A model generated the notes under the pieces. The model worked only from the letters and a program-made list of their open reading frames with translations, had not been told where the DNA came from and made no database searches. The translations under genes and the position numbers were made by a program. Below, piece by piece: positions 51,818-53,506 of a stretch of DNA of 64,000 bases (its first letter is position 1; each line of letters starts with the position of its first letter). The stretch comes from Klebsiella phage phi1_146029. The stretch is from sequence record PP889479.1. One strand, written 5' to 3'.

Positions 51818-53506
51818 ATGAAAACGCAGTTCAACCAACCCCAAGGCTCGACTTCACGTGAGACTAACAAAGAAGCAATTGCTCGCATCTTTGGATTGAA
51901 GAAGTCTCAAGTCGGATACCTATCGACATCCACCCCAATTGATTCATATGTCATACTGTTTGACAAAGAAACTCAGACTTGTTGGTATCGCGGTACGGCG
52001 ACAGGTACACCGATAAGTTGGTCAGTTAATGATAAAACAATAGAGTTAGTTACAACAGAAGGTAGTTTTACAATACAAATAGCAAATATTTTTTCAAATT
52101 TTGGGTCAGATAATGGTTATACGCTACTGGGAGGATTTTCCCTGCTGAAGGCGCGGAAAGTGTTGGTGATGTCAACCAATCTTTCTGGGAACGTATCTAT
52201 AAGCGAGGGGAGTTTGAGATTCACCAGATGCCTGGCGACCCTGCGGGTGTAGCGGGAATAGTATTCGGTGGACCCACTAACAAGGCGGCCATCGTCATAG
52301 ACGCACGCGGCCGCATCCAGACCTACGCCGTGGTTGACGGGAAATTATCCGCCGCACAAATTTCAACGCCTATCATTCAGGGGACGGGGTATTTCAATAA
52401 TGGGTTTGAGGATAAAATTGTCCGATTCCCATCCGCCGGAGGTGAGGCTGATGACCTAAGCCCCGGCATTCTGATTACTACGAACGCCAACGGAATCTGC
52501 GATTTTTTTCGTTGTTAGCCCCAACCAGTTTAACGACCTGGGCTACCCAACAGGGTCAGCCCTGGATAAGCAGATGTTCAAGCTGGTTAAATCGTTGGAT
52601 ATCGGTACATCGTTACAACGTACAATTGACCAGTACCCCACAGTAGAAAACTCCGCGTCGGTTATGTACCATCTTTTTGACGTCAATTACTCTGGCTTCG
52701 GTCCAAAGATAGTCAGCGGAATTCTGTCGGTCGGTAACTATGTTAATTATACGTCAAATGTTTACATGGTGACGCTGAACCCACAGAACTTGTCGGCAGC
52801 CCCCTCCCTGGGTCCCGACAGTATTTACCAGTGGCTGAAAGTGACGGCGCTCCATGGTGGTCAGTCGGGATGGGGGGATTCATCCACAACGCCCGCTGTG
52901 GGCCTCGTTAACGACCCTACCAACTCCGTAGCAAAAGTCTTCTTGCGACTGCCTGCGTATGGTCAGAAAATATCGTTCACACCGGTTAACGTTGCCAACC
53001 CCAACGTAGTGACATTTTACTACAATGACCTACGAAACAACGTAACGGTTGACACTCCAAATTATCTGGTTTATTCTTTCGCGGAGAGAATGGTAACAGA
53101 CCGATTTTACGTGCGAATGAATAACGGCGAAGTCCGGTATTCCCCAGGGACTGTAGTTCGCGTCTCAGGAAACGTCACTGACCGTTTATCTGATAAAACG
53201 TCTGATGGAGTATTCGCCGTTGGTGGAACGTATCACCTGGCTAATAAAGGCCGCGCGGCAAGTATTTCCGTCACTAACCCGTCAACAGGCCAGTACGTTA
53301 TCAGCGGATGCAATTTACGCGGTGATAGCTGGAAGATTTGCCCACCGATTGGTTTTTCAGGTACGTCATTCGGCACACCACCGTACACGGTTAACATCGT
53401 CTCTCAAGGGACGAATACATTCACCATTGAGGTCAAGAACACTGCTGGTACGTTGGTAAATATCGATGGTTTTGACTGGCTGGACCTGCACGTTCAGCCA
53501 GTTTAA
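51818..53506 (+). pseudogene. tailspike paralogue interrupted by two frameshifts (51818..52252 frame 2, 52228..52518 frame 1, 52574..53506 frame 2)
   Basis: N-terminus MKTQFNQPQGSTSRETNKEAIARIFGLKKSQVGYL paralogous to 49697 gene; alignment to paralogue (GFGLVGQVPSFTALRSV / GYTLLGGFSLLKARKV then ...GEF) switches frame near 52160-52200; second switch at T7 run 52503-52509. Confidence 0.45.

Follow-up and report, generated by a model that had tools for sequence, protein, structure and literature searches.

The 'fourth RBP with conserved peptide' of the Menlow group, a receptor-binding protein (RBP) in which the conserved peptide is N-terminal, was described by Latka et al. 2019 (PMC6872550) and is represented in Klebsiella phage 0507-KN2-1 by orf98 (BAN78448.1 / YP_008532049.1). 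Its depolymerase activity was rated in the same work as of 'lower probability' (PMC6872550). Truncated second RBPs of Klebsiella phages have been attributed to retrograde evolution in niches that offer a single serotype (Latka et al. 2019, PMC6872550); in KP32- and KP34-like phages an accessory RBP is cut to an anchor stub and the other RBPs are kept. Two further points of comparison are the tailspikes TSP1 and TSP3 of E. coli phage CBA120 (4OJ5 and 5W6F) and a two-gene tail cassette found in Raoultella phage Ro1 (Ro1_00214/00215), in the Klebsiella phages LASTA and SJM3 (gp13/gp12) and in many Klebsiella prophages. Among phage tail genes, lambda G/GT is an example of a programmed frameshift, and in Campylobacter phages the receptor-binding genes contain hypermutable polyG tracts.

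The stretch of DNA analyzed here (the window) consists of 64,000 nt of Klebsiella phage phi1_146029 (PP889479.1), a Taipeivirus (Ackermannviridae) with 95-99% identity to 0507-KN2-1 in the collinear blocks of a whole-window alignment. Only the TSP2-type gene departs from this: its C-terminal part (46322-49673) is 98% identical to the phages Zahir and K5lambda5 instead. The gene studied lies on the plus strand at 51818..53506. Judged by sequence and position, it is orthologous to orf98 of 0507-KN2-1 and encodes the fourth receptor-binding protein in the tailspike cluster of Taipeivirus. The two genes have 99.2% nucleotide identity and the same place between orf97 and orf99, and the region 51700-53600 matches 0507-KN2-1 at 99.1% over its full length. 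The cluster itself is located between the baseplate wedge genes and vrlC, in synteny with 0507-KN2-1 orf92-orf100 and with the contigs L006 and L007. However, orf98 carries runs of T5 and T6 in one open reading frame (ORF), whereas the window copy carries T4 and T7 and is divided into three.

The gene joins an N-terminal anchor of the TSP1/TSP3 type to a receptor-binding module that is horizontally mobile. Residues 2-72 align with CBA120 TSP1 and TSP3 and have the motif MxxQFxQPxGS...NKxxIAR in common with them, whereas the receptor-binding part is unrelated. The cassettes of Ro1, LASTA, SJM3 and the prophages match the window at ~78% nucleotide identity and in gene order (a fibre-module gene, a 12-nt spacer, a 541/542-aa beta-helix gene and small ORFs). 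In contrast, their fibre modules carry other attachment domains (T7-fibre-like, in a P2-type baseplate context, or others), and all copies are intact. The KP32- and KP34-like stubs resemble the window copy in that an accessory RBP is reduced to its anchor. However, those stubs are short, stably inherited and phage-group-wide, whereas here the full coding sequence is present with two 1-nt lesions in one genome. The resemblance to lambda G/GT and to the Campylobacter phage polyG genes is a homopolymer inside a tail-related gene. Their sites are conserved and involve a single event at a canonical heptamer or in long tracts, none of which is seen here. A literature search for frameshifted tailspikes in Ackermannviridae returned nothing relevant, and truncated or frameshifted TSPs are unmentioned in Sørensen et al. 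2021.

Structure of the broken gene

We aligned the gene with four close relatives: 0507-KN2-1 (L001), the Logan contigs L006 and L007, which come from different runs and both carry the 562-aa protein P0002, and the ENA metagenome contig L008, which carries P0003. The ORF listing and a three-frame translation confirm that 51818..53506 is in three pieces (Table 1). The first frame is open from ATG 51818 to TAG 52250-52252, giving 144 aa. In the +2 frame no stop occurs from about 52109 up to TAG 52516-52518, and the first frame then reopens and runs to TAA 53504-53506. Base by base, the gene differs from 0507-KN2-1 by 16 substitutions and exactly two length differences. Against all four relatives the length differences are also two, in the same two T runs. 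At site 1 the run sits in the Phe-Phe codons of GGFFPAEG, and at site 2 in those of DFFVVSPNQF (CDFFVVSPNQF), after which the shifted frame meets TAG 52516-52518.

Table 1. Features of the orf98 locus and the adjoining cassette, in window coordinates.
Feature	Position	Strand	Remarks
Terminator-like hairpin, AAAGCCCC-TTCG-GGGGCTTT plus T tail	51738..51767	+	Between the upstream tailspike gene (stop 51670) and the 51818 gene
Ribosome-binding site GAGGAA (51806-51811) and start ATG (51818-51820)	51806..51820	+	
Intact N-terminal anchor, codons 1-106	51818..52135	+	TSP1/TSP3-type virion-attachment module
Frameshift site 1	52136..52139	+	T4 here, T5 in 4/4 close relatives; 1-nt deletion
Out-of-frame tail of the truncated product	52139..52252	+	37 non-native residues (SLLKARKVLVMSTNLSGNVSISEGSLR...), then TAG 52250-52252
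Middle segment, native codons 108 to ~231	52138..52509	+	Read in the window only in the +2 frame
Frameshift site 2	52503..52509	+	T7 here, T6 in 4/4 close relatives; 1-nt insertion
C-terminal receptor-binding part, native codons ~232-562	52510..53506	+	Original frame again
orf99 homologue, 542 aa, intact	53519..55147	+	12 nt downstream of the orf98 gene
Small ORF, ~81 aa, end of the common cassette	55155..55400	+	81-aa gene at the same place in L006, L007 and L011

The longest ATG-started ORF of the middle segment is 52228..52518 (96 aa), and the segment is identical to the relatives' sequence except for one synonymous private substitution at 52158. The listed ORF of the C-terminal part is 52574..53506 (310 aa). 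When one T is added at site 1 and one removed at site 2, a 562-aa ORF results that aligns end to end with PHROG 20024 (1-562/562) and differs from orf98 at two of 562 residues, P8S and A22S. Since so few residues differ and 14 of the 16 substitutions relative to orf98 leave the protein unchanged, the gene appears to have been under purifying selection until recently.

A single ORF joining the anchor to the receptor-binding module is absent in the window copy and present in all four relatives. The 0507-KN2-1 gene is annotated as one CDS of 1824 nt, and three further independent copies, all intact, were retrieved with the repaired protein as query, namely P0002 on the two Logan contigs and P0003 on the ENA contig. 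The more distant homologues of Ro1 and LASTA are likewise in frame: at site 1 they have a T8 or T7 that keeps the reading frame, and at site 2 the run is interrupted (TATTTT). One protein, P0103, has the length of the third fragment (310 aa) and was considered as a recurrent break at the same place; it was rejected, as P0103 is cut by the end of its contig.

A sequence-only reading of this DNA had reported two frame breaks in the gene from 51818, and both the translations and the alignment of relatives bear this out. It was also correct about the T7 at 52503-52509, the TAG at 52516 and a reconstructed protein of about 560 aa. However, it placed the first break at 52160-52200 rather than at 52136-52139, and it associated a T homopolymer with only one of the breaks: this holds for site 2, but the T run at site 1 had been overlooked. 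It had proposed a search for an intact ORF in related phages, which is found in four of four close relatives (562 aa), and had allowed for relatives with three genuinely separate small genes, where the relatives in fact have one gene. Two further statements, that the anchor is common to the 49697 gene and that the C-terminal receptor-binding module is distinct, agree with our results: 52 of 105 anchor residues are identical (E = 6e-40), and from ~52113-52188 onward the sequence belongs to a cassette ~78% identical in nucleotides to unrelated Klebsiella phages and prophages.

The deposited orf98 of 0507-KN2-1 starts at an upstream TTG (window 51683; L001 5984-6118 corresponds to window 51683-51817) and is 607 aa long. 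Because a terminator-like hairpin (51738-51757) intervenes between this TTG and ATG 51818, we consider the ATG, and thus a protein of 562 aa, the more likely start; the same length is given by Logan gene calls and by PHROG 20024. The anchor comprises residues ~1 to 105 and is 50% identical to the N-terminus of the neighboring 49697 gene. In a phmmer search of the PDB its residues 2-72 matched CBA120 TSP3 (5W6F, E = 9.8e-9) and TSP1 (4OJ5, E = 1.2e-7), and many PHROG tailspike families align to residues 1-100 alone. A 60-nt patch of the anchor (51839-51898) differs by six private substitutions from 0507-KN2-1, L006 and L007. Despite this patch, the encoded anchor sequence equals that of L008 (P0003).

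Many Klebsiella and Raoultella phages and prophages have tail proteins whose sequences are 78-89% identical to that of the C-terminal part. A Pfam search gave no domain match in the gene, and a clean family profile (A2) found no solved relative of the C-terminal module in the PDB. An initial profile (A1) had matched PDB 7Y5S (Kp7 depolymerase), a match that we rejected because it is gone with A2 and with a single sequence; it stemmed from unrelated Taipeivirus tailspikes, with only the anchor in common, that the A1 alignment had included. An AlphaFold2 monomer of the intact orthologue P0002 was poor (pLDDT 46), below the quality needed to search for related folds.

Origin of the two frameshifts

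Because four close relatives carry the gene intact, alignment indicates that the window copy is either a recently dead gene or a sequencing error, and not a programmed frameshift. We favor genuine recent inactivation by slipped-strand mutation, with a probability of roughly 0.55. In this process two independent slipped-strand mutations in T runs would have shortened T5 to T4 at 52136-52139 and lengthened T6 to T7 at 52503-52509. Both lesions would lie in one gene because the second frameshift would be neutral once the first had killed it. The 144-aa anchor stub would still be made and could fill the docking site, with the receptor-binding part gone. The orf99 protein, which is anchorless and always accompanies the orf98 module, would probably lose its attachment to the virion. 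One capsule specificity would thus be lost, and infection would proceed via the other tailspikes.

Both indels differ from every relative spanning the sites (0507-KN2-1, L006, L007 and L008). To these we added a six-way comparison with 0507-KN2-1, Zahir, phi1_146041, UPM 2146, L006 and L007, in which no further isolated 1-nt indel peculiar to the window appeared in the remaining ~62 kb, coding or intergenic and including A/T-rich sequence. The other isolated 1-nt indels are common to at least one of the six relatives or form part of a local realignment pair. A general homopolymer problem in the assembly is therefore not indicated. Similarly, a tblastn search with all 268 stop-to-stop ORFs of the homologous 0507-KN2-1 region found a change of frame only in orf98 and in one spurious antisense ORF. 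If two random errors are distributed over the 741 runs of at least four nucleotides, the probability that they fall in the same gene is ~0.02, and that they fall in this gene 0.0015-0.008. Genuine inactivation is favored because random errors would share a gene only ~2% of the time. If the mutations are real, however, clustering is expected, since frameshifts are tolerated only in dispensable genes and a second hit is neutral.

The same observations bear on the reading that the DNA is truly T5 and T6, the 562-aa gene is intact, and both differences are homopolymer miscalls in the consensus. We consider an artefact of sequencing or assembly possible, at somewhat worse than even odds. Both changes are of one nucleotide within T runs, the classic signature of a homopolymer miscall and a point against inactivation, and the T7 is the longest homopolymer in the window's coding regions. 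The window contains two runs of seven and none longer; the other is a C7 at 49661-49667, within the 46 nt that separate the TSP2-type gene from the 49697 tailspike gene. In addition, the remainder of the gene and the downstream cassette are nearly identical to the relatives. The orf98 C-terminal part and orf99 (52000-55147, 3.1 kb) contain one private substitution, with none in orf99, as would fit an intact gene under selection. With a single private substitution in the cassette, two real indels must have arisen very recently and at a high ratio of indels to substitutions. In ViI-like phages ~40% of thymidine is replaced by 5-NeOmdU (PMC5889632), and hypermodified thymidine in this phage group may disturb base-calling in T runs and could lead to T-specific errors in the sequencing of native DNA. 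The artefact is opposed by the lack of further private single-base indels or of any other frameshifted gene in the ~62 kb, by the probability of ~0.02 for two independent errors in one gene, and by the fact that a T5 to T4 consensus miscall is unusual with short-read data. The T4 and T7 alleles were not found in an independent assembly by exact look-ups of the 96-aa and 310-aa fragments and of the VrlC and orf97 proteins, and exact DNA scans of IMG/VR, GTDB genomes and JGI metagenomes gave no match to a T6, T7 or T8 junction.

The sequence-only reading had offered three explanations, of which gene decay and homopolymer error both stay viable and programmed +1 or transcriptional slippage finds no support. 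In the latter, a ribosomal frameshift, RNA-polymerase slippage or a reversible change of tract length would tune the amount of full-length tailspike. In enterobacteria, transcriptional slippage is measurable at A/T runs of seven or more. After a +1 slip at the U7, tRNA-Phe could also re-pair perfectly (UUU to UUC), and a GGAGG motif is located immediately upstream of site 1. However, the shifts are unconserved: the four close relatives have a plain T5/T6 ORF, and Ro1 and LASTA are in frame. Two shifts in opposite directions, -1 at site 1 and +1 at site 2, would be required for the full-length protein. At site 1, GGA-UUU-UCC is not of the form X XXY YYZ, tRNA-Phe would have to re-pair on AUU, and a T4 is far too short for polymerase slippage. 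At site 2 nothing would make the ribosome pause, as the A site has neither a stop nor a rare codon; CGU follows the U7 and the stop comes two codons on. The 91 nt downstream of the sites fold unremarkably relative to shuffled controls (z = -1.3 and -1.9). Phase variation is opposed by tracts that are too short and by relatives that are uniformly T5/T6 (4/4), with no long length-variable tract. Programmed recoding is thus effectively excluded by this comparison, and recoding and phase variation together would be scarcely credible explanations of the locus.

A related proposal accepts T4 and T7 as real and supposes the gene to be partly alive. RNA-polymerase or ribosome slippage at U7 combined with low-level -1 slippage at site 1, or reversion at an appreciable rate of the T runs on either side of the middle module, would provide a minority of virions with the orf98-orf99 depolymerase branch. 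This is most improbable. If it were true, a phage with several tailspikes would have, in the residual branch, a bet-hedging switch that acts on one capsule specificity.

Two arrangements of the existing pieces were also considered. The -1/+1 pair is not compensatory, because the shifted frame has stops within the intervening 123 codons. Three separate polypeptides were likewise rejected, as neither internal ATG (52228 or 52574) is preceded by a convincing ribosome-binding site and anchorless fragments could presumably not attach to the virion.

The position of the two sites raises the question of recombination. Contig L008 (2080-3768) is ~100% identical to the window from 51968 to ~52500 and 72-82% identical beyond ~52520, and this pattern, together with the private patch in the anchor, suggests that recombination breakpoints flank the middle segment on both sides. 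One gene conversion could in principle have replaced 52136-52509, if its two crossovers occurred in the T runs at either end and were resolved by slippage, so that the left run lost a T and the right run gained it. Both sites are at module boundaries: the cassette of Ro1, LASTA and the prophages begins at 52113-52188, and the identity to L008 drops from ~100% to 72-82% just 3' of site 2 (after 52510-52520). The sole private substitution of the cassette (52158) falls inside the segment, and the two indels cancel to zero. However, this argument consists of one SNP and a coincidence of position, and both T runs are accounted for by the conserved Phe-Phe motifs that they encode (GGFF and DFF). Furthermore, a donor sequence was not found, and any two indels of one nucleotide would cancel in half of all cases. 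We regard a single gene conversion as very unlikely, if not quite so improbable as recoding or a gene that is partly alive.

If the lesions are real, as in the recent inactivation that we favor, a multi-tailspike Klebsiella phage has been caught just after losing one receptor-binding branch, with orf99 still intact. This would be a small natural case of host-range contraction, with a practical bearing on the prediction of host range from tailspike gene content and on the choice of phages for therapy. If they are an artefact, the sole consequence is that the annotation should have one 562-aa tail protein rather than three fragments. The gene family, the modular architecture and homopolymer frameshifts in an accessory tailspike are all already known, and the understanding of frameshifting or of tailspike biology is unchanged under either outcome.

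The orf98-orf99 cassette and other differences in the window

The cassette extends from ~52113-52188 to 55149 and has ~78% nucleotide identity with Ro1, LASTA, SJM3, and P2-like and other Klebsiella prophages, where its copies each bear a different N-terminal attachment domain. In all syntenic loci orf99 is paired downstream with an orf98-type module. An AlphaFold2 model of orf99 forms a right-handed beta-helix (pLDDT 79, pTM 0.85). The best PDB matches in Foldseek are GH136 lacto-N-biosidases, followed by GH87 and PL6 enzymes and the Sf6 tailspike. A right-handed beta-helix fold of the kind found in carbohydrate enzymes is therefore predicted for orf99, which has no Pfam match and belongs to a PHROG family of unknown function. 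As the beta-helix begins at the first residues, orf99 appears to be without an anchor. We infer that orf99 is attached to the virion through the orf98 module and that breaking orf98 disables both, so that the break in orf98 probably also disables the downstream gene. At the end of the common cassette, 55155-55246 has 82-86% identity to the Ro1, LASTA and prophage loci.

The TSP2-type gene of the window (45766-49650) encodes 1294 aa with a C-terminal Peptidase_S74 chaperone domain. Its receptor-binding module differs from that of 0507-KN2-1 orf96, an experimentally verified KN2 depolymerase, and the gene is 98% identical to Zahir and K5lambda5 and 89% identical to the K20 phage vB_KpnM-20. The exact TSP2 protein is present in the Logan contig ERR3179129_547, in which TSP3 and TSP4 differ and orf98 is absent. 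From these matches the tailspike cluster is mosaic. Because the TSP2 module differs from that of 0507-KN2-1, the primary host of this phage is probably of another capsule type, which counts in favor of recent inactivation of orf98.

Two differences from 0507-KN2-1 lie upstream of the tailspike genes. At 36547-36559 the HNH endonuclease gene orf90 of 0507-KN2-1 (record 86925-87485, ~540 bp) is cleanly missing, which looks like a presence/absence polymorphism of a homing endonuclease. At 41618-41841 BLAST matches to 0507-KN2-1 are off the diagonal with a shift of 72 nt and 80-82% identity, which suggests a short internal tandem repeat in the coding region upstream of the tailspike genes.
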